Below the pieces are notes generated by a model. It made no database searches and was not told the DNA's origin. It was given only the letters and a program-made list of their open reading frames with translations. Positions 15,403 through 56,187 of a DNA stretch of 56,187 nt are shown here, one piece after another (position 1 is the first letter of the stretch; every line of letters starts with the position of its first letter). Location of the stretch: assembly GCF_002105155.1 (NCBI RefSeq), contig NW_019029008.1:434001-490187 (forward strand), written 5' to 3'. Made by a program: the position numbers and the translations under genes. The stretch is from Lobosporangium transversale (Eukaryota).

Positions 15403-16665
15403 TTAACCAGACTGGTAGAGAGCAGGGCCTGCAACGATATGCTGGTTCAACTCGGTCAAATTGGCGGGTGTGACAAAGACATCTTCATCAACAAGTGCAA
15501 CAAATACAGTTCCGTTGATGATTGGATGACCCTCAGTGGTGAGACCGGGGTACAATTCTGGGACATAGGGCTGCTTTGTAGTGGCCTTTCCGACCTTGAA
15601 CTCATCACCGTTAGGCTCCGACCATTCGACATCGTCCAGTGGTGTGTAGGTAACATTCAATTGACTGATCCATGCAGCAAACTTGGGCTGTCCAGCGTTG
15701 GTGCTAGTCGTGTATTGGTCATCAGGTCCGATCTTCTTGCCAGGCTTCTCAAACTCAAACTCGACTACACGACCACCCTCACTCAAAGGTGGGCGGTCAG
15801 TTGAGATTGCAGGGCCAAATCTTGGGTCTGTGCTGTTGGGGTTATTGGTAATGAACAATCCAGGGAAGACTTGCCAGATCAGAGGGTGCTTATTATTAAT
15901 TTCGGGGCAAGAGACAATGTAGGGAACTTGAAGGGTCCATTGCATACTCTGGGTGATACCGGTTTGGAACCAGACTGGCATTGGGAAGAGACCCTCGAAC
16001 TGGCGGAAAACCATCTGCTGACGTGCTTCTGTAGTAACTGTTTGCAACAGCAGCTGTGCTGATGGACGCGAATTCAAGTGTTCGATAAAGCCAATGACAC
16101 CAGCCTCACCAATACGTGTCACCAACTTGCTGAAGCGGACAAACTCCTTGACAGTCTCGAACGGCCATTTGTAGGTGCAGGGCTTGGCCGCAGCAGGGCC
16201 GAGCATGTTGTAGATGTTAGTAGCGTGGCCGACCTCTTGATCTGCCATGTAAGCGACAAGTTCTCGATCAGCCTTGCTCAATCCCGCATCCTCAAAATCT
16301 TTGAGCGAGAACTTCTCTAGCGCGTACCGGAACAAATCAAGCTCAATCCATTCAGTGTAAAGAGCAATGCTGAGTGACTGGTAGTCAAAATCTGAGAGTG
16401 GATGGTACACAGGGGGCTCATCCAACCCGAGACCGCCGGCAGGAGTGTGAGGCTTTGGGGGCTCCTCATGAAGCTCACCATTGGAGACATAGCCCTTGTT
16501 TTCAGGGTATGGCGCAGTGATGTTGTTGGCATCAATTGGCTTCTCGTGAATGGACCTATTAGGGGCTTCTGGTGGGACGTCAGACCTAAAGACGCTCATA
16601 GGAGCGGCATTGATAAAGCTTAGGGCCAAGAGGGCGAGTGGAATAAGGTTGAACTTCGACCTCAT
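15403..16665 (-). CDS. Secreted Rds1-like stress protein, ferritin-like domain, ~420 aa, intronless
   Basis: Signal peptide MRSKFNLIPLALLALSFINAAP; motifs DFDYQSLSIALYTEWIELDLF, ADQEVGHA, TTEARQQMVFRQFEGLFPMPVWF typical of fungal Rds1/Ferritin_2; TATATAA on minus strand at ~16784-16790 favours the ATG at 16665. Confidence 0.85.
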   Translation of the reverse strand: MRSKFNLIPLALLALSFINAAPMSVFRSDVPPEAPNRSIHEKPIDANNITAPYPENKGYVSNGELHEEPPKPHTPAGGLGLDEPPVYHPLSDFDYQSLSIALYTEWIELDLFRYALEKFSLKDFEDAGLSKADRELVAYMADQEVGHATNIYNMLGPAAAKPCTYKWPFETVKEFVRFSKLVTRIGEAGVIGFIEHLNSRPSAQLLLQTVTTEARQQMVFRQFEGLFPMPVWFQTGITQSMQWTLQVPYIVSCPEINNKHPLIWQVFPGLFITNNPNSTDPRFGPAISTDRPPLSEGGRVVEFEFEKPGKKIGPDDQYTTSTNAGQPKFAAWISQLNVTYTPLDDVEWSEPNGDEFKVGKATTKQPYVPELYPGLTTEGHPIINGTVFVALVDEDVFVTPANLTELNQHIVAGPALYQSG

Positions 16666-19307
16666 GTTGGTAGATCTGGAGTTCGAGGGGATAGGAGGGG
16701 GTAGGCAAATGCTAGATGTAATGTGAATGATGAAGAGTAAAAAAAAAAAAAAAAAACTCTTTGGGAAGGGCAAGTTACTACCCTTATATAGGATATACAA
16801 GGTGTCTACCTCCTACCTACTTTCTCAATCATTTGCAATCAGTGTGGCATCACCACTATGAAAGATTCACACGTCACCCCTGTTCCTGAAATAAACTCCA
16901 CCCTTTAGCAAAGCAAGCATCCATGGTCACTCTTTCTGCACAAACTATCCAGATTTCTTTATCGCTTGCGTGCATCGCATGGTACCATGCGCGTAAGGGT
17001 TGTGGTCAAAGTTAATCTTAATACCCGAGCCTATCTTGGGACGCCAATCTGAGTTTGAACAAAGTCTCAATAGCGATATTTAGTATCATAGTAATCAAAG
17101 ATATTTTTATATGAGACATGGCGACGTATAGCGCGAGCCAGAATGTTTTATTTTTTTATTCTAAAGTGTCAACGTTTTCTATAAATTGCGGAATGAGTGC
17201 ATGGATACTTACATCAGTACCGTGCGATAAAATGCTCACTAAACTTCCCCAGTATAGCATTTGAAATGCGTTACTGACCTGCATAGACCCTATACTGATC
17301 AGTTTGCAATTATGACATCAACTTGATGTTCCACACTTGCTCTCACAGCGGTTTTCCCTTTCTCTCTTTTTTTAAAAAGTGAGCATGATGAAAAGTTGCG
17401 CAGGTTATAATGAATATGAATACATATAACGTTAGAAGGAATAGGCGTGAGAAGAGGGATAATGCATGCGCGATCGAAATCTAAAAAGAAGTACCAATAG
17501 AATGCCTTATAAATGATGTCTGATCTACGTGATTGTCACTTTTTTTTTAGTCTACAGCCTATTCGCATAATATGTAATAAAATAGACCGGTCGGTCAATT
17601 AAAACTAGTGTTTGTATATATATTACTTTTATGTTGTAAAATACTGTTCAATCTCGTTTGGTGCCATGTATGATGTTTTGAGATTGGAGCGACATAAATA
17701 GGAGATCCCTTATCATTCCTTTTTGAGGACATGAAAGGAGCACTTTATTGACTGCTCATAGTTTTTCCTAAAATAGCCTTTCAGGGTTCAGAATCTTACT
17801 GTCCAAATTTCACTACTCTTTTGTTCGGGAACACCTCAGATAGTATAGTCAGTATTTAATAGTAGTGACAATAATAACATTAATCATAATGTTATTTGTA
17901 AAAGAGAACGATTGCATCCTAAATTTGAAAATAAGATGTCATATAGCATAATTCCCTATTGATGATTTTTACAGTGGACCAAAGTATACAAGAAAAAGAG
18001 GAGTACAGTCTGTGGATCACTGGCAAAAATTGTTCACGTCGTTGTAACGTAATCTAATCGGTGGTAATACAAATATTTTTGCCGGAAATATTTGCTAGTC
18101 ACAATCCAAACAGACCTTCTATAAATATATAAATATATCATCACCCTAGGAATGCAGACGCGTTTCTCTCAAGCCTTCGAAGTGAGAGGTTACCCTAGGC
18201 TCGTAACCAACCTAAGATTATCCTCTTTTCATTATTCCAAAAAAAGAAAAAAACAGTAGCAGGCATTGGTGGGCAATGAGGCAAGGAGTGTTTGGAGGTT
18301 AGAGATTGAACCAATTGTGGTCTGCACAGAGGTCAATGCAGACTAAAAAAAAAAAACTTTCGAATGATAGACATTGCAACATCACTTTACAAGCTACTTG
18401 ACAAGCAATCGTAGTGGGCGAGCTTGGACAGCAAGTAGAATATTCATGTTAATAAAACGATTCCAACTCCCTTATGTTTCTTTCAAAGTTTACGCATCCA
18501 CACCCTTTTATTTCCATTATCTTACTAAGGCCTATCGCTCTCAGCAGATTACTTTAATAATACTGTAATATATAATAATAATAATAAAAGTATCTGAAGC
18601 ATAGGAAAGGGTTCGATCAAAGGTTTGGATGCCTCATCTAATAATCAGTCCCGTGCTTTACAAACTTAGAATACCTGCAAGTTTTAAAGTTGTGGAGTGG
18701 ATGGCACCCAGCAGCAGCCAAGTTTACACAGAGAATAACATCAATATCGAGCTGCACTTAGTCGGGTACACAGGAAAATATTGTTTCCGGAGGTTCACAT
18801 GCCAGAATAACTAATTTTGTACCATGAAGGGATAGGATATTCAAATCTTTAATAGAAGTCTTTTGTTGATGATTTATGATCGGTGCTCTTGTTTTTTATA
18901 GTTCATGATGCTTCATTATATTCTCTAGATCAATATCTTTTTCTCCATCCGCATCTTTTTTATTGCACTGTATATAAAATCATGACCACCAACGTTTCTT
19001 TTTGACAAAAAAAAAAAAGCTTCAGCATAATGTAAGACTTACATAGCAGTGATTCTTTTCGAAATAAATGGAAGATTTTAAGGATTCAGTCAACGTATCT
19101 AGTCCATGAAAGTCCACTTATAGCAAAGTTTGATACAGACGTATACGCTTTTTTTGAATTAAATTAGTGGCTGATTCACTTGCAAGCAAGCAAGCTAATA
19201 GGCTGCCAGTAAACAGTACATGAAACGGGCCATTACAACCACAGCCACCACAGCACTCAGTTGTTTCACGAAGTGTACGTACATAATGTTGACGTTTTGT
19301 TTTCAGC

Positions 19308-19316
19308 AATATAAAG
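19308..19316 (+). promoter_or_regulatory. Candidate TATA box for the 19429 gene
   Basis: AATATAAAG ~115 bp upstream of the ATG, followed by a pyrimidine-rich leader and A at -3 (AAACCAAG-ATG). Confidence 0.45.
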
Positions 19317-19428
19317 ACGAGCCTTCGAAAGGAATTGATCAGCTCTTGTACCAACTTTTTCATACCACCAACCCAAACTTATCTCTTGCTTTTTCCCTTC
19401 ATTTTCACTTTAATTCATTTAAACCAAG

Positions 19429-19773
19429 ATGTCTCATACTCTTACGATTGACGGCAGAACCTCGATTCAATTTGAATCTGTCTCTGGGCTGGACGCTTCT
19501 GCACTCGAGACAAAGCCATACATCCACTTACACAAAGGTCGCGGCACCGCCACCTCTGAGCTTCTCGAATGGATGGCGTCGGATACTGTCAAGGCTACAC
19601 CAAAGAACGTCACCATCAGCTCTCCTAACCAGTTGACCGGAGGCCAGCAGGTATGGACACTTACGGAGGCCAAGCCAGTCCTTGTTTCGGGCCAGGGTGT
19701 CAATCAGAATACGAATGAATTCGCAGTTGAAGATCTGAGACTGTCTGTTGCGGATATGAAGCCTCAGCAATAA
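19429..19773 (+). CDS. Phage/contractile-injection-system tail tube-like protein (T4 gp19/Afp1/Afp5 family), 114 aa, intronless
   Basis: Collinear motifs IDG...F.SVSGL, I.L.KG....ELLEW, KNVTI, W.L.EA.P...SG...N..TNE.AVE.L.L match the gp19-family pattern IDG...F.E.SGL, ITLKRG....ELW.W, RK..SI, W....AWP...GP.LNA.SNEVAIE.L.L. Confidence 0.8.
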   Translation: MSHTLTIDGRTSIQFESVSGLDASALETKPYIHLHKGRGTATSELLEWMASDTVKATPKNVTISSPNQLTGGQQVWTLTEAKPVLVSGQGVNQNTNEFAVEDLRLSVADMKPQQ

Positions 19774-20305
19774 GCATAAAAAAAAAGCCAAGAAATGATG
19801 GAAGGAGGAAGAGAGAAAGAGGGATCCTCATTTTTTCTCCCTCTATTTCATAAGGCATGTACATATACATACGAACCTCGAGTCTTTCTTCATGGATCAA
19901 GATCTCGAAGTTGTCATCTATTCATTGAAAAAAATAAAAAATAAAAAATAAATAAAAAAAATAATTAAACAAAAATTAGTACAGGTCTGTTTTGAGTTTT
20001 TTTTTTATTCTGATGTATGATCCTTCTAAAACTGGTGGAGTGGAGTAGAGTGAGGCCAGGTGTTGGTAGGTAGGGGTTATAGGATAGGGCTCAAGGGAGG
20101 TAATTTCATCCCAATAGACACTTTTCGAAGCCCCCCGTTTTTCCTTCGAGACCTGCTAACAACCCTTATCGAAGAAAAGTTAAAAGTTTGACCTTTGACC
20201 TTTTACGTTTTTGCGTTTTGGAAAAAAAGCATAGATTTATTTGTTACACAACTAAACTAAATTCAGTTCACAGAGAGAAATGATCTTTAGCTTTTGCCCT
20301 TTCCG

Positions 20306-21301: not shown

Positions 21302-21485
21302 GCGGTCTCTCGAGATAGGACGTCAAATCGTTGAGATGCTCTTGTTTGCGAACGTATCGCTGTCTCGAAACATAACTACATCCTCTATCCAGTCAACTAA
21401 ATAAAGTTCAAATACATATGGGAAACTTTTTCTTCAATCTCTTTCTTTTCCGTTTTCCACATATAAACAGCTAGAGTAAACCACC

Positions 21486-41019: not shown

Positions 41020-44000
41020 TCAAGATGGAGTCAAGGCCTTGCTAGGCTTGAACGCCTCCGACAACGTCAGCGCCGTTTCATACCCAATCGAGTTGCCTGT
41101 AAAATTCAAGGAGCTCAAAGTCGTGTTAAACTTCCGTGCCTCCAACAGTGCAAGGGCTCCTTCACTCCCAATGGAGTTTCCTCCCAAGCCCAAAGCAGTC
41201 AACGCCATGTTAGTCTTGAGTGCCTCTGACAGTGAAAAAGCTCCCTCGATTCCAATTGAATTGTGCGCCAACTCCAAAGTCGTCAAGGTTTCGTTTACCT
41301 TGAGTGCCAATGAGAGTGCATAAGCTCCCTCATTTCCAATTGAATTGGATTCCAAGTCCAAAGTGGTCAGAACCGTCTTCGTCTTGAGTGCCTCTGACAG
41401 TGCAAGAGCCCCCTTCTTCTCAATCGAATTACCCTTCAAGTTCAACGTGGCCAAAGTTGTGTTTCTCGCAAGTGCCTCTGACAGCGCGAGAGCTCCTTCA
41501 TCCCCAACTGAATTGCCCTCCAAGCACAAAGCGGTCAAAGCCGTGTTACCCTTGAGCGCATTTGATAATGAAAGAGCTCCCTCCATTCCAATTGAATTGT
41601 ACGCCAATTCTAAAGCGGTCAATGTTGTATTACTCTTGAGTGCCTTTGATAGTGCACGAGCTCCTTCATTGCCAATTGAGTTCCATTTCAACTCTAAAGT
41701 AGTCAAAGCCTTGTTCTCCTTGAGCGCCTCTGACAGTGCCTGAGCTCCTTCCTTCCCAATTGAGTTATCCCACAAGCTCAAAGTAGCCAAAGCCTTGTTG
41801 GTCTTGAGTGCCTTTGATAGTACAAGGGCCCCTTCCTTCCCAATTGAGTTCCATCCTAGATTCAAAGTGGTCAACATAGTGTTTGTCTTGAGCGCCTCTG
41901 ACAGCGCAGCAGCTCTTTCCTTCTCAATCGAGCTGCCTCCCAAATCTAAAGTGATTAAAGCTGGGTTGGTCCCCAGTGAGTTTGCAAACACTTTAAAGTC
42001 ATTAGCTTCCATTAATCCAGGTTTCATCGAAAAAGATAATTTGTGAAGATGCAACGGCCTTTTGGGCTGCAAACTGGAAAGCTTTATAAGGTCCGGGGAT
42101 AGAACAATATGAATCGTCTTCATCTTGCTCAGTCCCATGATCCGAACCAGGGTTTCATACCGCGTGGATATTGGAAGAAATTTCTCGGTAGTGCTTTCTT
42201 GAGACCTTCCGAGATCAAGTCGAAGGATCGATACACTTGACTTCTTTAGTGCTTCCTCGAATGCAACAAGGTCAGCTCTTGTCCACTCCCAGCCGAATGT
42301 AATATCCAACTCGTAAACACGCCTTGCATTAGCTAGCACATTGAAGAATTCTCCAGGTTTGCTTTTGGGATACAGGGCGATAATCACTTTGCCAAGATAC
42401 GGGTCATATTTGCCTCCATTATTTTCCACTGCACCAGCAAACTCTTTCTGTTCTTTTTCTCTATATGTCGAATGATAGTGGTCGAGACAACCCATTTTAC
42501 GTGACCTGTTTCCGTCGTGATCCTGTACAAGTTGCCAAATTCCCTGTCTTCATCCCTTATTCGAAGAAATGTGCCCAGTTGTCGGAGATCTGCCCCTTCG
42601 AGTGCCTCATGCTCATCGATTGTATTGATGTTTTTCAACACCGGGTACTCAATAGAGAGCTTTTCCATGTATTCGATTGAGTAATTGATAGCAGCAGTCA
42701 AGTTTGGGATTGGTGCTAGACAAGCAGCTATGGGCGCTCCCACCCTGAGGCAATGTAAAATGATGAGCATGTGCCTTCCATACTTGCGAAAAAACTTTGT
42801 GCTGTCACGGACTTCATATCCATCATGCTTAGCAAGGTGGATTTGGTTTTGGCTGCTCTTGCTTATCTCCGCAGTGAGCTCTCCGCATTCACAGAGGAAA
42901 TGAAGGCGGAACTTATTTCCCAGGACATTCCTTGGGTCCCACTTGGAGGTGTCGACAGGTAAGATGATAAACAGCCGTGGGATTGGATACTCGTGTAGCT
43001 CAAAGTTTTGGACTAGGATAGCATTGGCATGTTTTTGTAGTGTGGCGAGCTTATCGAGCGCTTTATTTTGCAACTCAAGCATTTGATCGTCTCTATCCTT
43101 AGCCTCCAGTTGCAGTGCAAGTACCATGTCCCCTTTCTCTCTGACCTCTAATTGCAGCTGATGTATTTCCGATTGGAAAGCTAGTATCTTGTCATTTTTT
43201 TCTATGGCCTCTAACTGTAGCTGAAACATATCCGATTGTACTCTACCCATCGCCGATTGCAGTTCAAGCATTTGTCTATCTTTCTCTTCGGCCTCCAATT
43301 GCAGTTGAATCATATCTGATTGATTTATATGTCATATCTGATTGATTTATATGCATCGCCGATTGCCGTCGAAGCATTTCGTCACTCCCCATACTGATGC
43401 CTTGCAGCAGCTCCATAGCCCTTTCTATATTAGAGTTGACCATCTCAGTTCGTCTATTATTGCGCGTAACGAGGGATGAATTGGAAGACCGTGCCAAATA
43501 TGATAATGGTAAATGGTCCTGAGTAGCTAGATTTGTCGATCTTTTTGATCCAGGCAAATGGGTGGCGACGTTGTTGACGCCCTTGCTACTACTGTTGCTG
43601 TTATCATTGTTGTTGCTCTTGCTGTTGCCGTTGCCGTTGCTGGCGCTCTTGCTGTTACCGTGATTGTTGTTGGAAATACGGCCGCCGTTATTATTGTTGC
43701 TATTGCCGCTACCATTGACACCGGTGTCTCTGCTGCTACTACCAGGCTGCAGTCTTTTTGTAACGACATCCAAGGCCTTGTCAGGGTAAAACGCGATGCG
43801 TGGAGGCTCGATCCTAATAGGCGGCCTAAAGAAAGAAAGAAAGAAAACGTGTTAAAATTGAGCTCTCTCTTCTCTTTCTGCCACTCTTAGGGTAATTGAT
43901 AAGGTAAAATAAAGTAGCCAATGGGAAACATTAGTACCTGTTGCATTAGTGTCCAAGAGGAATCGAATGGGGATCCCATCCAATTCGAATCCCGACGCAT

Positions 44001-45577: not shown

Positions 45578-46362
45578 GTGGGAACTTTTGAGAGCATTGA
45601 TATGGTTTTTGTTCATGGAGCTGTGAGCGATAAACATGAACCAAACTGCTGGGAAATATTTCTCCAAATTACATGTGAAGTGATATTATGCAGTTTTCTC
45701 CAGGAGAAGAGGAAAAAAAAAAAAAAAAAAAAAATGGAAGCACGGAAGCTGCTGCGGTAGCTCCTCCTCAACTTGACCGAGCTCTGAGGTGTATAGATAG
45801 TATGTGGTATATAGTATATGGTATAGAGCCTCATTTCCACACTGACAGCTCTAATTAGCTTCACTTGAATAAAGTATCCTCCTAATCAATACCTTGGATT
45901 CTTACTTTTGGGTCTTTCAATTTTGACATTTCATGTAGTGATAGATGTAGAGAGAGACTGTGTGTGTGTGTGTGTGAATGAATGGGTGAGAGAGAGGAGC
46001 CACTGACATCGATTTCCGTCAAGTGAAGTAAAGGCGACTGCACCGCTTGGTATGATGAGGTATTTGTCTACCAGAGTGGGTATCAGCCTCCAGGACTATT
46101 AGCTTGAATAAGAAAAAAGCTGCTGTGTGATCTGCATGTGCAAGAGTCCCGATAGCCACACACTGCGTGGCTTGCTGCATTACGCAACCAATTTCCTTTG
46201 ATGTTTGATTGATTACATAATCAAATAAAATAAAAAAACAAATGCATCCTATCCGTTTTTACATGACAATGATCAAGAAAATGGCATGTGATTGATTTTC
46301 TCACGGTCTTGAATTAAGGAACTCAACTTCCTTTTTCGTTTATTCCAAGCCTTCGTTCATCA

Positions 46363-46427
46363 CCTTTCCTTTCCTTTCCTTTCCTCTCCTTTCCTTTCCT
46401 TTCCTTTCCTTTCCTTTCCTTTCCTTT
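46363..46427. repeat. (CCTTT)n pentanucleotide microsatellite upstream of the Crinkler gene
   Basis: About 12-13 units of pure pyrimidine repeat. Confidence 0.95.
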
Positions 46428-46495
46428 TGCCTTACTCGTTTTTCATTTTCTCCCAGCATTTCAACCATACTCAGTCTTACTTATCTTTATTAACA

Positions 46496-48967
46496 ATGGT
46501 CGCCACAAGGAGTTCAACACAAAAAAACATAGCTGCAAATGATTCCACAAGGAGCCAAGCACAAATAAAAATGACTGCAAATAAGCCTGAGGATGCCTCC
46601 ACACTCAATAAACGAAAAAGAGAAAACCAACACCCACAACGAAAAAAGCGCGCCATCTCACCGCTGCTGGAGCTGAACTGCGTTGTCGAGGGAGAAGCAA
46701 CGCCGTTCCCAGTAGAGATTTTCTGCGATAAATCGGTCAGGATGCTCAAGGAGGTTATCAAAGCAAAGAAAGCCAATGCATTGAATAATATCGGCGCTGA
46801 CCAGCTTACCCTCTACAAGGTTTCCATCCCTGACAAAGGCGAGGCCATCTTTGAATCAGAAATCAAGTCAAAAAAGGCTCTTACAGTCGCGTCAAAGGAG
46901 CTTGGGAACATATTCAATTCTGAACTTCCAAGGAAAACTATTCATGTTTTTGTCAAGCCACCACAGCGAGGTATATCTTTGGCTCTTGATGGACTGATTG
47001 TTGATATTTCCAGCTGATGAAGCTTGGTTTATATCTTAAACGGCCATGTGCATGATATCACCATTTGGTTTGTGCCTTGATAACTCAACGTTCTTTCTAA
47101 TTATTCGCTTTTGATACTTAGCTCAGAAAAGAAAACAGGATGGAGATTCTGGTGAGTGCTTTTGGCTGAGAACCTGGTTATTGATCATTCTAGAGTGATG
47201 TGCAATAAATCAAAAATATTAATTTTGATCACTCTATCTCTTTTATCAGAGTCACCCTCTAAAAAAGCTCGTTCAAGCATGAGTAGCAGAGGTGATCTTA
47301 TGGATGCGATTACAGAAGCAGGGCTTGTAACGAAAGAGATAGTGGATGGTGGCCCTACCCTCTCGCCTCTCAACTCCAAAGAGAGGGTCAAGGTGCTTTC
47401 GTACATGGGGGAGGCATCGGTAGATAGTATTTACTACAGTATTATTAGCGTGGCTCGCGAGCTCCGAAATTCTGGTGAAGCTATCAAGGATTCCAAAATA
47501 TTGACTGCCCCTGAGGGTCGTACCTTCCCTATTGTTGATACACGGCATCTTTATATCAGAGAAGAATATAAAGAGCTTTATGACCATATTACAGCCAAAC
47601 TCACTACTCCTCCCAAAGTATATTGTTTGAATCGACTCTTTGTCACTGGAACACCTGGAATTGGGAAGTCAGCCTTTTTGGTCTATTTTGCCATCCGCCT
47701 CATTGCCGAACACGATGAGGAAAACCCACCGATTATTATTTTCCAAGAGAAGAAGAGTACTAGATGCTATGCTTATGGAGGAACAACTTGCCAACGTTAT
47801 GGGCATATAGGAACATTCCAAGATTTCCTTGCTCGGCCTGAAACGTGGTACTTAGTTGATAGTGGTGATAATCCTCAACCAGATCACGCCAGGACGATAT
47901 TTTCGGCATCACCAAGAACTCTCAGTGGACAGTACGATGAATTCGCCAAGGAAACTAGACCATATAGCTACTATCACATGTCAATATGGACTTTGGACGA
48001 GCTTAAGGAATGTAGAGCCAATGTAGAGCATTATCATCGAATGGATGAAGAATTTTTGGAGGAGCTTTTTTGCAACTTGGGGGGTGTGCCAAGACAGGTC
48101 CTACAGGGTCCATCTGATGTACTATGCAGAGATCAAAAAGATATTGACGGTGCTAGAGAGACTGCGTTTCAGTGTGTCAATGATGCCATTGGCCTACTCC
48201 AGTCCCCAGGAGATCTTTTTGACCTCTTTATTCCAGGAGATAAAGCGGGTAGTCATTTACTCCATAGAGTCCCCACTTCTGACCACCTCCGCTTCCACCT
48301 GGTATGGGCATCTCCTTATGTTCGATCAAGGATCATCATGGAATTAGATCAGACTTGGATCGACGCGTTGAAGCGACTTGCCAATTCTGACAGTGAAATA
48401 AAAAAAGGACCTTCGTTTGAACTCTATGTTCACTATTTAATTCGATGTGGTGGACTTCGGTTTCCATTTAAGGATCTTCAGTCAGACGAAACAGGATTCT
48501 TTGATCTTCCGAGGGAATCGGAAGCATTATTTACCAGGACTACAGCAGATTTTTCAACATTCTCCAAAACAACAGACAAGTTGTTTCTACCATCTATACC
48601 CAACTTTCCGTGCATCGATTTTGCATTGGGACCCAACAAGCTATTTCAGGTCACAGTATCAGAGAATCATCCGATCAAGCAAGCACCATTTAAGGAGATA
48701 ATTGATTATATTACTGGACCCTGCCCGAAGGGAAACCGATCAGATTCGAAAGGAAACCGATCAAAGTCGAGTGGAAGTGATGATACCATTTTCCTCTACT
48801 TTGTGGTACCAGGATACATATATGACAATTTTAAGGCTCAGAGGTTTGTTATAAACGATGATCAGGATACCAAGACAATACCTGGATGCTTGAAACATGT
48901 AAGACAGCGTGTCATAAAAATCGACATCAATGTTGTATATTCAGGCGGTACGAACCTGAAGAATTAA
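46496..48967 (+). CDS. Crinkler (CRN)-family protein: ubiquitin-like header + P-loop NTPase + C-terminal REase-fold nuclease, ~740 aa; exons 46496-46970, 47122-47151, 47250-48967
   Basis: Header LNCVVEGEATPFPVEI...LKEVIK...ADQLTLYKV...IHVFVKPP; Walker A GTPGIGKS, Walker B WYLVD, GGVPR; PNFPCIDF...LFQVTVSENHPIK; phase-1 introns join in frame. Confidence 0.9.
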
Positions 48968-50001
48968 ATCGAATACCAATTAAGTGGATGAAATTTGTCA
49001 TGTAAAAGAAAAGCATTATACCTGTTCCTTGAGGGTTTTTTACAATAGTACATCCTTTATGAATGAAGCCATCATTATCCACTTACCTTTTAGACGAATA
49101 GATAGTGTGGTTTAATCAGTCCTCCCTTCTACTGGGGCATTTAGGACTTTATAAAGCTTCCTGTGATCATCATGCGATCTTGTGTGCAAGAAAGGGCGGA
49201 ATTTTGTGATACTATTACCAAAGAGTTTTGTAAGAACGGATAGAGATGAAGGATCCTGTGGAGAACCCAGTGAGAGTCTGATGATGAGACCCAAAATCAT
49301 ATTATTATCACCAGGACAGCTGGCATAGGAAATTATCCTTTCTCATATGCTTTGTCATCTGGATGCTTACCACTTGCGGAAGCCCCATCAATTATCATCA
49401 TCCAAGGCGCCAGAACGTTTACCGGGAGCTAGGATGACAGCTCCGCTCTAAAGACATAAATGTCGTTTTAGCCCCATGGTGCGTGCACGGGATGGCAATC
49501 TGCGACCAATGAGATCATATTAGTTGTATGGTCGGCCAATTCAGTGTCAGTATGTGAAGGCGGCGCGTCTAGAATCTCTAGGCGTCCAGGGACATGAAAT
49601 AAAAAAAACATCAAGAATTTGGCCCAAGGCTGCCACGAACTTGACCAGTAAAATGTGATACAATATTGGATTGTGTCGTCGTCAATAGATTAATAGTTCT
49701 CGGTATATTAATGCTACATGCTGTTGAGGGCATCAATCAATCTCACCAGAATCATTTCCTCTCACATCAATTACCTTGGGAGCTATGCTAGATGGATGGG
49801 AGATTAGGAGGAAAAGGTCCTTGATGTCTGGGATATCCACGCTTGTTTATAATCTCACCAAATGTTCTGTGTCTTGCGTTCATAGGCGGTTAATCGCAAT
49901 TTGGTTTTCGTATACCCCTTGAAGAACGCAAACAAAAATGCCTTTATGTTTATACTCGTCAATTTACCCTTTTTACTGACTTGTGTATTTCAAATACTCA
50001 T

Positions 50002-51731
50002 AGTCAATAAACGGTTTAACAACAATGAGAAAGAATTTTATTCTAAGGATTGGTCTGAGTTTATCAAGGCTTATATTTATGGCAACGTTAAATTACCAGT
50101 AACAGACGGCGCAATGTCAGGCTTCCCAGATGCTTGGCGTCGATTTCAGTCAGAAAAAAGAGAGGCGACACATAGACCGTCACTCCTGTTCTTTGACCCT
50201 CCTGGTTTGGATGGCTCTTATATGAGCTGCGACTCTAATAACAAGGCAAAAGAGATCTTCGTACATACTTCGTCGCATAGTCTCAGCTTTTGTCCACTTT
50301 TTGGAGCATCTGGCTGTGGAAAGACTCGAACAGTTATGGACACACTCTCGCAAAACTGGGGATTTTATTTTAATGCTGGTCGAGATGATCGCGGACCAGA
50401 TGATGTCTGGTCTTTGATTACTTCTGTCAATCTTGGGGCTGGTGTTAACTTATCGGTAAACACTAATATTGCTATGTCGACCACTACCTGCCTGCTCCTT
50501 GTTCGTGTGTCTATCCTGTTATGTTGTTTGAGTTTGTCCGAAGGTAGAATGATGCCTAGCCAATGGATGCTATTGCAAGTGTGTCCACAGGTTCTTGGAG
50601 AAGTTCATTGAGGAAACTCGGTTCCATCCAGGACACTTCAAGGCACTTGTACGATATTTGGAAAAACAAAGTTCCTCAAGCTCTGCATCAAAGCTGAGAG
50701 GCCACTTTAATGATCAAGCAATCGAGATGCTATATGCCTGGTCCTGTGGTCGTCTCCGTCCAATGATCACTATAATAGAAAACCTCATTGGGCGTGCCGA
50801 TGCTGGCCTTGGGAAGCAAGAAATCAAGGGCCTGGTGTCGTCGCTCACTGATCCAGGATATAAAGAATCTGGTAACCTATGCCATGAATAATCTAGAATT
50901 CTGAAGCGTATTAACAAAGGGGATGCAGGAATTAAAAGCAGTGTCGAGATTAGGAAAATCTTCAGTCGAGCCGTAAAGAATGGATTACTCTATGGTAAAG
51001 ACCTGATATTGGAGTACAAAGAGCCTGTTCCGGTCGAGGCTTCGTTTGTTCGAATTGTCGTTAATCAAAGGAAGAAGGAGTTTACAACTATCGTTGAGCC
51101 AATTGCATTTATAGCAGCGATTAACTTGTTTGAAATGGATGACCCTGAATTGGTTAAATTGGTTAATAGTGTGTTGTTAGACGCCCCTACGTCTGGCACA
51201 AAGGGCACACATTTTGAGTATTTCAGTCCCGCTTTGTTAATTCCAATCTTCCAGAACTATAACAATGAACGAATTCTTGGATACTCACTGTAACAAAGAC
51301 TCAATACATGAATCCAAGTTAATCTCGAATACCTCTCATCACCGTCCTCTCTACCCGGCTTTGCTCGAATGACATATCCTTATTGCTGTTGCTTAGGCCT
51401 TACTTATCGCGTTGCCTTATCATGTTGTCTTATCATGTTTTCTTATCATATTGTCTTAACATGAACAGGGTGATTATTCAGTAGCTAAAGTCAAAGAAGT
51501 TCCTGCCATCAAAGACAAACGAATAGAAACGACGTGCTTAAAATTAGCTTGTTGAACTTCCTTGAAAGCGCAAGGGAGTCCCTCGAGAAGTCAGAGTTGA
51601 CTCGAGTTATGGAGGATGAGGGAGAAGGAAGCAAGCGCAAAGAACTACAGGCAAGGAGGACATCAAAGAGAATTGTCGATAAAGCTCAAGCTATGGAGAA
51701 TAAGGAAGAGTTGAGCAAACCCAGCGGATGA
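50002..51731 (+). pseudogene. Decayed Crinkler-type P-loop gene of a second subfamily
   Basis: KLPVTDG..GFPDAWRR..RPSLLF, PLFGASGCGKTRTVMDTLSQNWGFYFNA, GRLRP, PVEASF, IVEP; broken into several ORFs by frameshift and stops; no header exon seen. Confidence 0.7.
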
Positions 51732-52312: not shown

Positions 52313-52477
52313 TGTTACGTCCTGAGGCTAGGGAGTGTACCCAAATGGAGCACTCCCCTTTTTATTCATAGATCAGAGCAATTAGTGACGGCTATGTTGG
52401 AGCCTATATAAGGCTCCGACCTAGCTAAAATAATAAACAACTTTTGATCTCCTTGACTTCCGATTTACCATAAAACA
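52313..52477 (+). repeat. 5' LTR (~165 bp) of the Ty3/gypsy element
   Basis: Starts TGTTAC exactly where Crinkler homology breaks, ends AAACA; internal TATATAA (52405) and AATAAA (52432); second LTR is outside the window. Confidence 0.65.
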
Positions 52478-52577
52478 TATCATTTTTTCAAGGATCTACA
52501 TAGAGTTACATCCATCCATTTTATCAATCCATCCAACCATTTTTTTTTTCCATAATTTCAATCCCTTTATTTCAATC

Positions 52578-55500
52578 ATGTCTAATATTAATAAAGTACC
52601 AATTAACGAAGATGTTGATATGGAAATCTCTTCACCAGAGAATGGCTCAGGCTTGACACCTGTCGAGCAGTTGAACTTATTGGTGGCTAGCCTGGTCGTA
52701 GATACGACGGAGAGTGTAGTCGAGTTCGGCAGTGATGCTGTTCCCGATATCGAGAATGTTACGATGCTTCTTCGAAGTTATAGACTTCAGAAGGAGGAGA
52801 CACTCAGAAAGAAGGCATTGCTGTTCCTTAGGTACAATGATGCCAAATCAAAGTTAAGAAAAATTGACATTGATGAAAAGACACTTACCAAGGCCTTAGG
52901 CGATCTCGCTCAACAGAAGGCAGACATCTTGAAGGTCTTAGTAAGACAAACTGAAGACTTGAATAGTTCTATTGAACATATGGAGGAGGTCAGAAATGGC
53001 TTATCTTCAAGCGAGGACGTTTCGATTGATAGATCGAGTGTGTCTGAAGCAGATAGTCACCGTATAACGGTGAAATGGGATCCTGCTAATCCCGAACATG
53101 ACGCACTTCATCGAATCTTCAAAGAAGAGAACATTCCTTTGATGGAAGATTCAGAAGAGGTAGACTATACCAAGGTCAAGAAGAAAACGTTTGCGGATGC
53201 GCCTATGCTTGATTTAGACGTGTCCAAGGTTCCCGGCAAGAATATGGTCAAGGAAATAGCAATCAGGGTTGTCACTTTCCGTGATGACTTTGAGAGGATA
53301 TTCCGTCGTAACCTTTCTGATGTTCTTTTCGACAAACTAGCATGGGATTACTTATCCCTCTGCGTTTCCAAAGTGTCCGGCCTGGCGCGAGACTATGACG
53401 ATCTCATCAAGAAAGTGCCTCTTCAAGACAGGACCTGGTCTCGGGCAGTTACATGCTTGAATAAAGCTCTAAAGTTTGACATTCTAGGGGCTTACATCGC
53501 TGATATGGCGCTAGTTATGAGGCCTGAGAAGAATGACACTATTAGGTCGTTCGCGCAACGATTGCTACCACTGGTTGAGGCAGCTGGAATCCCAGATGAT
53601 GGCTGCTATATGCTCATCAAAGCTTTATGCAATCATCTGTCCGACGTAGGATTTCAGGCTGTCATCAAGGAATTCGGCTCAGTGAAAAGTGTTAGCTCTT
53701 TGAAGGAGTTTCTAGAGTTCCTAGAAAAGACACCAGGTGCCTTAGGTGAGAAACGAACCGATGACGCCCATTGGTTTATCCAGAAGTATGGAGGAGACGC
53801 TGGAGAACAGTATTTGCGATCCATCAAGTCCAGATCGGAATACACTCCTAGAGAGGTTCCGAGATCTAGTCATAAAAGATCTCGACTTAATGCCAATCCG
53901 TCAAGTGATAGAGAAGCCAAGAAGGCTAAACCATTCAAGGTCTGGTGTAAGGGAACGGAGAAGTGTAGGTCGAATCCGTACAAACATGCCCCGGAGGACT
54001 GTCGGTATGCTAAGGATCAAGTCAGAGATCATTCTAAGGATAAGCCCAAGGACGTCAAGAGAACTGATGTGCGCAAGCCGCTTGCCTCAGTCAGTGCTTT
54101 TAAGAGGATTAGTGATAGTGCGCTCATAAGAGACATAATTCCGAATAAAGAATCCTTCTTTTCCTCGTACTCAATTGTTGAGAAAGCTTGTATCAAGCAC
54201 CTAGGGGCTTTCAAAGGTCCCGCTCCTGGTGATAATAGAATAGCTGTGCCTATATTTATAAACGGGCAACAATATACAGCATTGTTAGATCCAGGCGCCA
54301 CAACTTCTTTGCTCAGTAAGGAAGTAGCCATAGAGCAAGGTATTCGCTATGGTCGAGTACCAGGAGAATCTATAGCAATGATAGAAAAAGGGACTAGCAC
54401 GGATAATGCCATTACTTGTGATAAAGTCCAATTGGTCTGCAACAATAGATCTGGAGAATATCAATTGTCGGTCATGGACATTGAGTATTATGACTTCGTG
54501 TTGGGAATGGATCTCTTCGCTAGACTCGGCTTTTCCATCACGGGAATAGCCATGCCGGAGATACGAGAGGAGGAATCCCTATGGGTCCCATATGATGAAA
54601 AACCTCAAGTCATTCCGTCACAAACTCCAGAAAGAGAAAACAATGCTGAATTCAAAGCATTGAAAGAAAAGTTCCTGTTAGCACTGGAGCCTTATTTACA
54701 GGCGAATGAAGCCATCTCGCCAAATTCATTTTGCAATCTTGATACAATGAAGGTCCAGCTAAAGGTTAAACCCACCTGTATCATCCAGGAAAGATCTCGC
54801 CCATTCCATTCGCAAATTGAAAAAGAAGAAGTGGAAAAGACCATCCAGAAGTGGCAAGAAACGGGTGTTATCGTTCCAGCACCTAAGGGGTGTCCGTATA
54901 ATAACTCCCTGACAATGGCAGCACGCCGTGACCTGGATGCTAATATTCTGAAATATAGAGTATGCCTTGATCCAAGAATGTTGAATCGTCAACTAGAGGA
55001 TACTGATGTCTTCCTCTACCATTAATCACTGATATCCAGCAGAGGGTAGCAGGGCATCTGTATTTCACCGCAATTGATCTGTCTCAGGCGTATCATCGCA
55101 TGCCTGTAGAGAAATCAAGCCAACCACTAACTGCATTTACGTACGGTGGTAAGCAATATATGTTTGCTAGAGCACCTTTTGGTTTAAAACCCCTCACGAG
55201 TATCTTCCAAAGAGGAATGTCACAACTCTTAGATGATCTGCACTTTGCTGACAATTATGTGGATGACATTATTGTCTATTCGCACACAGCAGAGGATCAT
55301 ATTCTTCATGTCAGCATTGTCATAGAAAGGCTTACAGCTGCAAAGTTGATAATCAATAGAGAAAAGAGTAAATTCCTTAGTACAGAAGTGCTACTACTGG
55401 GGTTCATAATCAACAAAGAAGGACGCAAAATAGATATCAACAAGGTTGCTAATGTGCATTCATGGACACCACCTACCAATAAGAAGATGGTTCAACGCTA

Positions 55501-56187
55501 TTTAGGCCTCTTCAATTATTTTAGGGAGTATATACCCTTGTACAGCTCGCTCACAGCACCTCTAAGATGCCCTGCGCAATGCCAAAGGCACTTTTGATCT
55601 TAATAAGGAGCAAATGCGAAGCTTTAACAGCATCAGATCGCTTATAGCCCAAGCTCCAGCCTTATCGTTCCCTGATTTTACTCAGCAATTCTTTGTAGCC
55701 ACCAGATGCCTCTAACGTAGGCATAGGAGCTGTCCTATATCAGCTACCGGGTGGCAAGGAAGATGAAACCAAGGTCAACTACATATCCTTTCAAGCCAGA
55801 GCATTGCATAAGCATGAGAAAAATTACCCAGCTTACAAGAAGGAACTCTTAGCAATTATTTTTGCACTAATGAAATTTCACCATTACCTTTGGGGAAGAA
55901 GATTTACATTATATACTGATCACAGACCTCTGACGTACATTCATGAACAGAAGGAGTTGCCACAAATAATCCTGAATTGGAAGGCCACTCTGCTCAACTA
56001 TGATTTTGAATGTATTTATCGTCCAGGCCTGCTGAACATTATTCCAGACGCATTATCTCGCGCATTTCCTGAGGAATTGTGGAAGTCTCCTAAAGAAGAA
56101 CAAGCTACATGTTCTACGAGTCGGCAGATTGCTTCTATGAGGCGAGGAACAGAGACTACCGAGAATGTTCAGGCAGCTCCACAGTTC
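52578..56187 (+). CDS. Gag-Pol polyprotein with three single-base frameshifts (~55013, ~55565, ~55703); partial at 3' end
   Basis: 815-aa ORF followed by RT/RNase H motifs in shifted frames (FPLPLI, PLDALR, ATDAS each restored by a 1-nt correction). Confidence 0.85.

Follow-up and report, generated by a model that had tools for sequence, protein, structure and literature searches.

A gene of the fungus Lobosporangium transversale encodes a gp19/Pvc1-type tube protein in which two assembly elements, the N-terminal arm (N-arm) and the beta2-beta3 stacking hairpin, are both deleted. The gene lies in a window of 56,187 nucleotides (the whole stretch of DNA that was analysed) and is an open reading frame (ORF) of 114 open codons (Table 1). 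Its start ATG at 19429 is closely preceded by an in-frame TAA (19420-19422), its stop codon occupies 19771-19773, and the frame stays open between them, as the first-pass annotation of this DNA had said. NCBI, UniRef, nr, and eukprot all list the exact 114-amino-acid protein (one cluster member, two contigs). A hidden upstream exon encoding the N-arm was considered and rejected, since the deposited protein is identical to the single-exon ORF. Judged from its sequence, the protein belongs to a known tube family and its shortened form is real.

Table 1. Positions of the tube gene, its parts, and other features of the window
Feature	Position	Strand	Basis
Tube-fold gene, intron-free ORF, 114 aa; without N-arm and without beta2-beta3 hairpin	19429..19773	+	
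Residues 1-14, direct start at strand 1; N-arm of 11-17 further residues missing	19429..19470	+	homologue alignment, model
10-residue linker DASALETKPY instead of a 27-30-residue stacking hairpin; modelled as short helix	19492..19521	+	alignment, model
Core kept: strand IHLHKG, helix with W48, strands with W76, P83, and the N96-E-x-A-x-E motif	19522..19746	+	alignment, model
TATAAA, 119 bases before the ATG, with a pyrimidine-rich leader after it; weak candidate for a fungal promoter (the DNA is AT-rich)	19310..19315	+	sequence
AATAAA repeated in an A-rich tract 3' of the gene; possible polyadenylation signal, weak	19933..19958	+	sequence
Ferritin-like gene (PF13668), intron-free, whose start resembles a signal peptide; lies 2.8 kb from the tube gene in divergent orientation	15403-16662	-	
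Tc1/mariner-like transposase remains, broken, first copy; present in many copies in run X4 (depth about 200-250)	21420-22500		
Tc1/mariner-like transposase remains, broken, second copy	27766-28194		
Coiled-coil plus LRR_6 repeat gene; reading frame differs across about 42400-42550 (intron or frameshift)	41023-43851	-	
Crinkler N-terminal domain (PF20147), then P-loop-like ORFs, partly in pieces	46313-51290	+	
LTR-retrotransposon-like gag-pol with reverse transcriptase (PF00078), frame changes	52437-56187	+	

Family, fold, and missing elements

The homology of the fungal ORF to tube proteins is greater than chance. The protein passed the gathering cutoff of PF06841 (Phage_T4_gp19; 34.2 bits against 28.2, residues 31-110), which was the only entry in a Pfam listing up to E 10, with no match to an Hcp family. 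Its scores lay below the cutoffs for the Pvc1/Afp1 inner tube family TIGR02241 (31.2 against 62.4 bits) and for the CIS5 tube adaptor NF053770 (16.1 against 260 bits). Pvc1 was the top match in a sequence comparison with the PDB (E 5e-4), the ESM Atlas agreed in returning eCIS tubes as the best solved relatives, and PHROG and phage records yielded no match.

An AlphaFold2 model built from a 91-row alignment (pLDDT 88, pTM 0.81) predicted an intact fold, the beta-sandwich plus helix of eCIS tubes, with the helix and all core strands kept. Foldseek matched this model to both eCIS tubes and Hcp (E about 1e-4), the eCIS tubes 7adz, 6j0b, and 6rao falling at E 1e-4 to 1e-3. The top VIA matches were Hcp chains (Z 9.8-9.0, rmsd 3.2-4.2, 86-103 aligned), among them 7yw0 (Z 9.8, rmsd 4.0, 101 aligned), in keeping with an Hcp-like fold without the N-loop; the eCIS tube Pvc5 scored Z 8.6, which leaves Hcp and eCIS tubes tied within about 1 Z, and the Hcp scores may gain from loops unresolved in the crystals. 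The eCIS tubes Pvc1 (6j0b), Afp1 (6rao), and AlgoCIS (7adz) are of the same family and fold (PF06841/TIGR02241) and share the conserved F15, G20-L21, G37, W48, W76, P83, N96, and A99, whereas the fungal protein lacks the N-loop, has 10 residues in place of a hairpin of 27 to 30, is about 30% identical at best, and comes from a eukaryotic host.

Both deletions fall within positions 19429-19530, which encode residues 1-34. The linker of about 10 residues recorded at first reading proved to be exactly 10, from SGL (residues 19-21) to IHLHKG (32-37), and the family length of roughly 30 was likewise borne out: among 120 aligned bacterial homologues, the same linker had 30 residues in 111, 31 in one, 19 in five, and 17 in one, the remaining two, N-terminally partial, having 25 and 27. 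In the Pvc1/Afp1-type tubes of Mycoavidus and Mycetohabitans it had 27 residues. The model placed a short helix (residues 23-27) of lower confidence (block pLDDT 67) at the hairpin position. At the N terminus, the description of a protein that starts directly at its first strand also stood: the modelled strand begins at residue 3, and the conserved Phe of the second strand is preceded by 14 residues, versus 25 to 31 in most homologues.

Linkage to fungal DNA

The gene is linked to fungal DNA. Contamination of the assembly, or bacterial DNA joined to it in a chimera, would suit a bacterial-family gene without introns, and a survey of horizontal transfer in early-diverging fungi includes a section on contamination being commoner than transfer; for this gene, however, such an origin is hardly credible. 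A single 3218-base contig of DNA run X4 spanned 16768-19926 with 0 differences, running from the fungal flank through the gene at a depth of 10.9, like that of its neighbours (7.8-8.1), although X4 is possibly the source of the window's DNA and hence not fully independent evidence. Words from 19200-20000 were 99 to 100% present in four DNA runs from three studies, all of them possible sources of this DNA. The flanks are AT-rich fungal intergenic DNA (35-37% GC), and third-position GC (GC3) is 0.54 in the tube gene versus 0.55 in the neighbouring ferritin-like gene. A tblastn search with the ORFs of 82 eCIS loci matched the tube gene and nothing else across the 56 kb of the window, neither sheath nor baseplate nor any further eCIS gene.

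The neighbours in the window are eukaryotic (the ferritin-like gene, Rpn13, a C-5 DNA methylase, synoviolin, a Crinkler-domain gene, and transposon remains), and several of them are spliced at GT..AG. No RNA run was listed among those containing the words of the gene region. Contigs of run X7, guessed to be RNA, covered neighbouring genes and left out the tube gene, which says nothing about expression. Capture by a transposon was rejected because, of 50 inverted pairs, none of the 25 longest forms terminal inverted repeats around the gene.

Origin and constraint

The gene was probably acquired from a bacterium. The fungal protein was about equally distant from all tubes (best 33% over aligned columns); its best-scoring bacterial match, P0003, was 36% identical, has a 17-residue linker, and pairs in the tree with a full-length sister protein. 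This absence of a close donor suggests long residence in the fungus or an unsampled donor. The fungal branch was very long (1.4-2.0 substitutions per site), and its position differed between trees: FastTree (set dereplicated at 72%, 286 to 89) put it outside all clades, and IQ-TREE (set dereplicated at 68%, 210 to 83) put it inside the Pvc1 clade; L003_3971 was also left out of the trees. In an AU placement test, 98 of 161 positions were not rejected, including those beside short bacterial forms (by the L094/L108 clade, delta lnL 0.8, p-AU 0.79; by P0003, p-AU 0.58) and beside Mycetohabitans, while placement next to P0191 was rejected. Given the conflict between the trees and the many placements retained, we claim no donor. 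The trees are compatible with loss of the hairpin before or after the transfer.

Going by its gene content, the host fungus is presumably of Mortierellaceae type and would then belong to a family that hosts Mycoavidus. All five Mycoavidus/Mycetohabitans genomes searched encode tubes, every one with a full-length linker, so that endofungal bacteria are plausible as the source of the gene or as its target. Mycoavidus was nevertheless rejected as a named donor, since identity to its tubes (24-31%) was no better than to those of other bacteria, the two trees disagree, and so many placements stay open. Mycoavidus genomes (L005, L009, L011, L069, L163-L182; G001-G005) carry up to seven PF06841 genes, of PVC-like and other CIS types; a literature search found no paper on contractile injection in Mycoavidus.

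No fungal relative was found by a word search of 5.8 billion clusters (one of six candidates was the query itself), by a full HMMER search of 1.84 billion representatives (three matches: the protein itself, the repetitive false match P0002, and bacterial P0003), or by a pattern scan of JGI metagenome contigs (0 of 131 stretches). The fungal protein kept 11 of 17 columns conserved in bacteria at at least 80% and 7 of 19 at 60-80%, along with 5 of 23 at 40-60% and 9 of 54 below 40%. Under simulated neutral decay to 30-50% identity, with indels left out, the 114-codon ORF was still open in only 18 to 39 of 1000 runs. With conserved columns preferentially kept and the frame so rarely open under neutral decay, the sequence pattern indicates that the gene diverged under constraint. 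That pattern could stem from the bacterial donor, ahead of a recent transfer; the gene is a single copy in one species, and the constraint may have acted either in the fungus or in the donor.

Lone hairpin-less tube genes in bacteria

Shortened linkers also occur in soil bacteria. In 80 soil-metagenome loci with a total of 99 tube ORFs, nine of the ORFs had linkers of 10 to 23 residues, five of these 10 to 12. A profile built from the short forms, and so biased toward them, retrieved 7963 proteins; the best 120 listed include 114 new ones, with linkers of 10-12 residues in 100 and of at most 22 in 108. Those with a taxon name were Acidobacteriota, and short forms were placed in at least three separate parts of the tree. 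On these sequences, deletion of the loop is not a fungal invention. That the closest bacterial homologues might already be shortened had been named at the outset as a finding that would count against the ring-forming fungal protein then proposed. It applies insofar as P0003 has a linker of 17 and a large class has one of 10 to 12, but the placements do not establish descent from them.

The short forms stand alone. Five short-form loci were scanned, three covering 15 kb and two 7-9 kb. In each of them the short gene was the sole ORF with a match to an injection-system family, and the neighbours were housekeeping genes (lepA, murJ, galactose, and regulatory genes); in two genomes the short gene adjoins lepA downstream, facing it. 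All three genomes with lone short genes that were checked encode a sheath and a full-length tube elsewhere. Such genes lie at L217:7278-7661, L218:7383-7772, L219:7497-7886, L103:3941-4348, and L093:1322-1708 and in L085, L094, and L108 (further proteins, P0126-P0238). A second shortened type, with a linker of 22-23 residues, directly follows a full-length tube gene (L088:442-809, L089:273-695, L196:1064-1500, L198:1938-2378). A literature search found no report of lone hairpin-less bacterial tube genes. Their presence in several bacterial lineages indicates that such a product can be maintained.

The lone bacterial genes resemble the fungal gene in linker length, in having no injection-system neighbours, and in predicted fold (short form P0174 was modelled with the same core, pLDDT 82). 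They differ in being only about 20% identical, in being mostly basic (median net charge +3, versus -3 in the fungal protein), and in keeping the N-arm: 110 sequences with linkers of at most 15 had a minimum of 25 and a median of 27 residues before the Phe. At least the arm was therefore probably lost separately.

Oligomeric state

Published experiments on the two missing elements bear on what the fungal protein might assemble into. The loop is given as 25 to 28 residues long in Hcp1, gp19, pyocin, and diffocin tubes and is described as passing, in contractile tubes, under the neighbour in the same ring to the next ring (PMC6088184); stacking of Hcp1 is reported to depend on it (PMC4650826). 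The first-pass statement that Hcp has the hairpin reduced thus does not hold: it is the N-loop that is described as missing from T6SS tubes (PMC8718954). Hcp/TssD resembles the fungal protein in fold and in having no N-loop; it differs in retaining the stacking loop L2,3, where the fungal linker has 10 residues, and in sequence (5-19% identity in structural alignments). Deletion of the loop is reported to block tubes in T5 and SPP1, the SPP1 mutant being a folded monomer (PMC8718954), and P74-26 without Loop1 to form almost no tubes (PMC10034513). For YSD1, removal of the hairpin is reported to give hexamers, removal of the N terminus monomers, and removal of both primarily monomers (PMC7385642).

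By analogy with T5, SPP1, YSD1, and P74-26, in all of which loop deletion reportedly abolishes or nearly abolishes tubes, the earlier expectation that the fungal protein does not form long tubes is very likely correct. The Hcp-like rings proposed along with it fared worse, since in YSD1 rings formed only where the N terminus was kept. By analogy with the YSD1 mutants, the nearest experiment, the fungal protein is likely a monomer rather than a ring, and the bacterial short class is predicted to form free rings. The YSD1_22 mutant without N terminus and hairpin has the same two elements gone from the same fold, yet it is artificial, comes from a three-domain siphophage protein, and had only eight N-terminal residues removed. 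The YSD1 and SPP1 proteins are both from siphophages and less than about 5% identical to the fungal protein in structural alignments, so that the analogy is loose. A complex prediction with four copies of the fungal protein scored 0.00 (alignment unused, outside the tool's calibration) and favours neither state.

Candidate functions

Our tentative preference is for a transferred, folded, non-polymerising, and probably monomeric subunit that would act as a binder or chain stopper, a reading favoured by a core that was kept while both assembly elements were lost. A stand-alone tube-fold gene would have been acquired from a bacterium, and its product would fold without polymerising and stay mostly monomeric in the fungal cytosol (no signal peptide was seen by eye). 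The retained sheet edges would dock on tube-fold partners, and a docked subunit, offering neither hairpin nor arm, would stop further growth. The best-guess partners are injection-system tube subunits of endofungal bacteria such as Mycoavidus. The partner is also the weak step, because eCIS tubes are assembled inside the bacterium and a fungal cytosolic protein would have no obvious access to them. The occurrence of a single copy in one species also speaks against this reading. Minor Hcps are reported to enter mixed rings (PMC13213661), so that a variant subunit acting via its partners would have a precedent. A bolder version is quite improbable: a fungal anti-weapon, in which the stripped monomer joins the tubes that endofungal bacteria build for their contractile injection systems and stops or senses them. 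The fungal protein would then be the eukaryotic counterpart of lone hairpin-less "tube stoppers" in soil bacteria, all of them belonging to one convergent and undescribed class.

Two other readings were weighed against a binder or stopper. Free hexameric rings like those of Hcp, serving as cargo carrier or scaffold, would draw on the inner-sheet strands of the 24-stranded barrel, which are kept, on the Hcp chains at the head of the VIA matches, and on the hexamers reported for YSD1 lacking the hairpin alone (PMC7385642); Hcp, moreover, is described as forming rings without an N-loop (PMC4650826, PMC8718954), which also speaks against a monomer. Rings are nonetheless unlikely, in that the loop deleted here is one that Hcp keeps (PMC6088184, PMC4650826), the hairpin is reported also to contact the same-ring neighbour in contractile tubes (PMC6088184), the YSD1 double deletion was primarily monomeric (PMC7385642), and the Hcp matches lie so close to those of eCIS tubes, with no Hcp Pfam match. 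The gene may instead be a transferred relic, the lone tube gene of the donor bacterium having already been shortened and now drifting in the fungus, intact but jobless. Its singleton status in all collections searched, its very long branch, and the Tc1-like transposon remains in the region would fit, as would the existence of lone hairpin-less genes in bacteria, beside which attachment was among the best-scoring placements. Set against this are an open frame whose start and stop are intact, a GC3 like that of the host, flanks that look fungal and carry TATA-like and AATAAA motifs, the lack of a close bacterial donor, and the N-arm retained by the bacterial short class, and we regard a relic as somewhat doubtful.

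Implications

As far as a literature search found, no fungal eCIS tube gene has been reported, and neither PF06841 nor gp19 turned up in the text searched from the survey of transfer in early-diverging fungi (PMC11291939). If the fungal gene is functional, a eukaryote reuses part of a bacterial injection machine; as a relic, it would be a small curiosity. The numerous lone genes of soil bacteria, hairpin-less and with the N-arm kept, may matter more than the fungal gene. Together, the bacterial short forms and the fungal protein are nature's equivalents of the YSD1 mutants lacking one or both elements, and comparing them offers a simple way to tell which arm determines whether a ring, a monomer, or a tube results.
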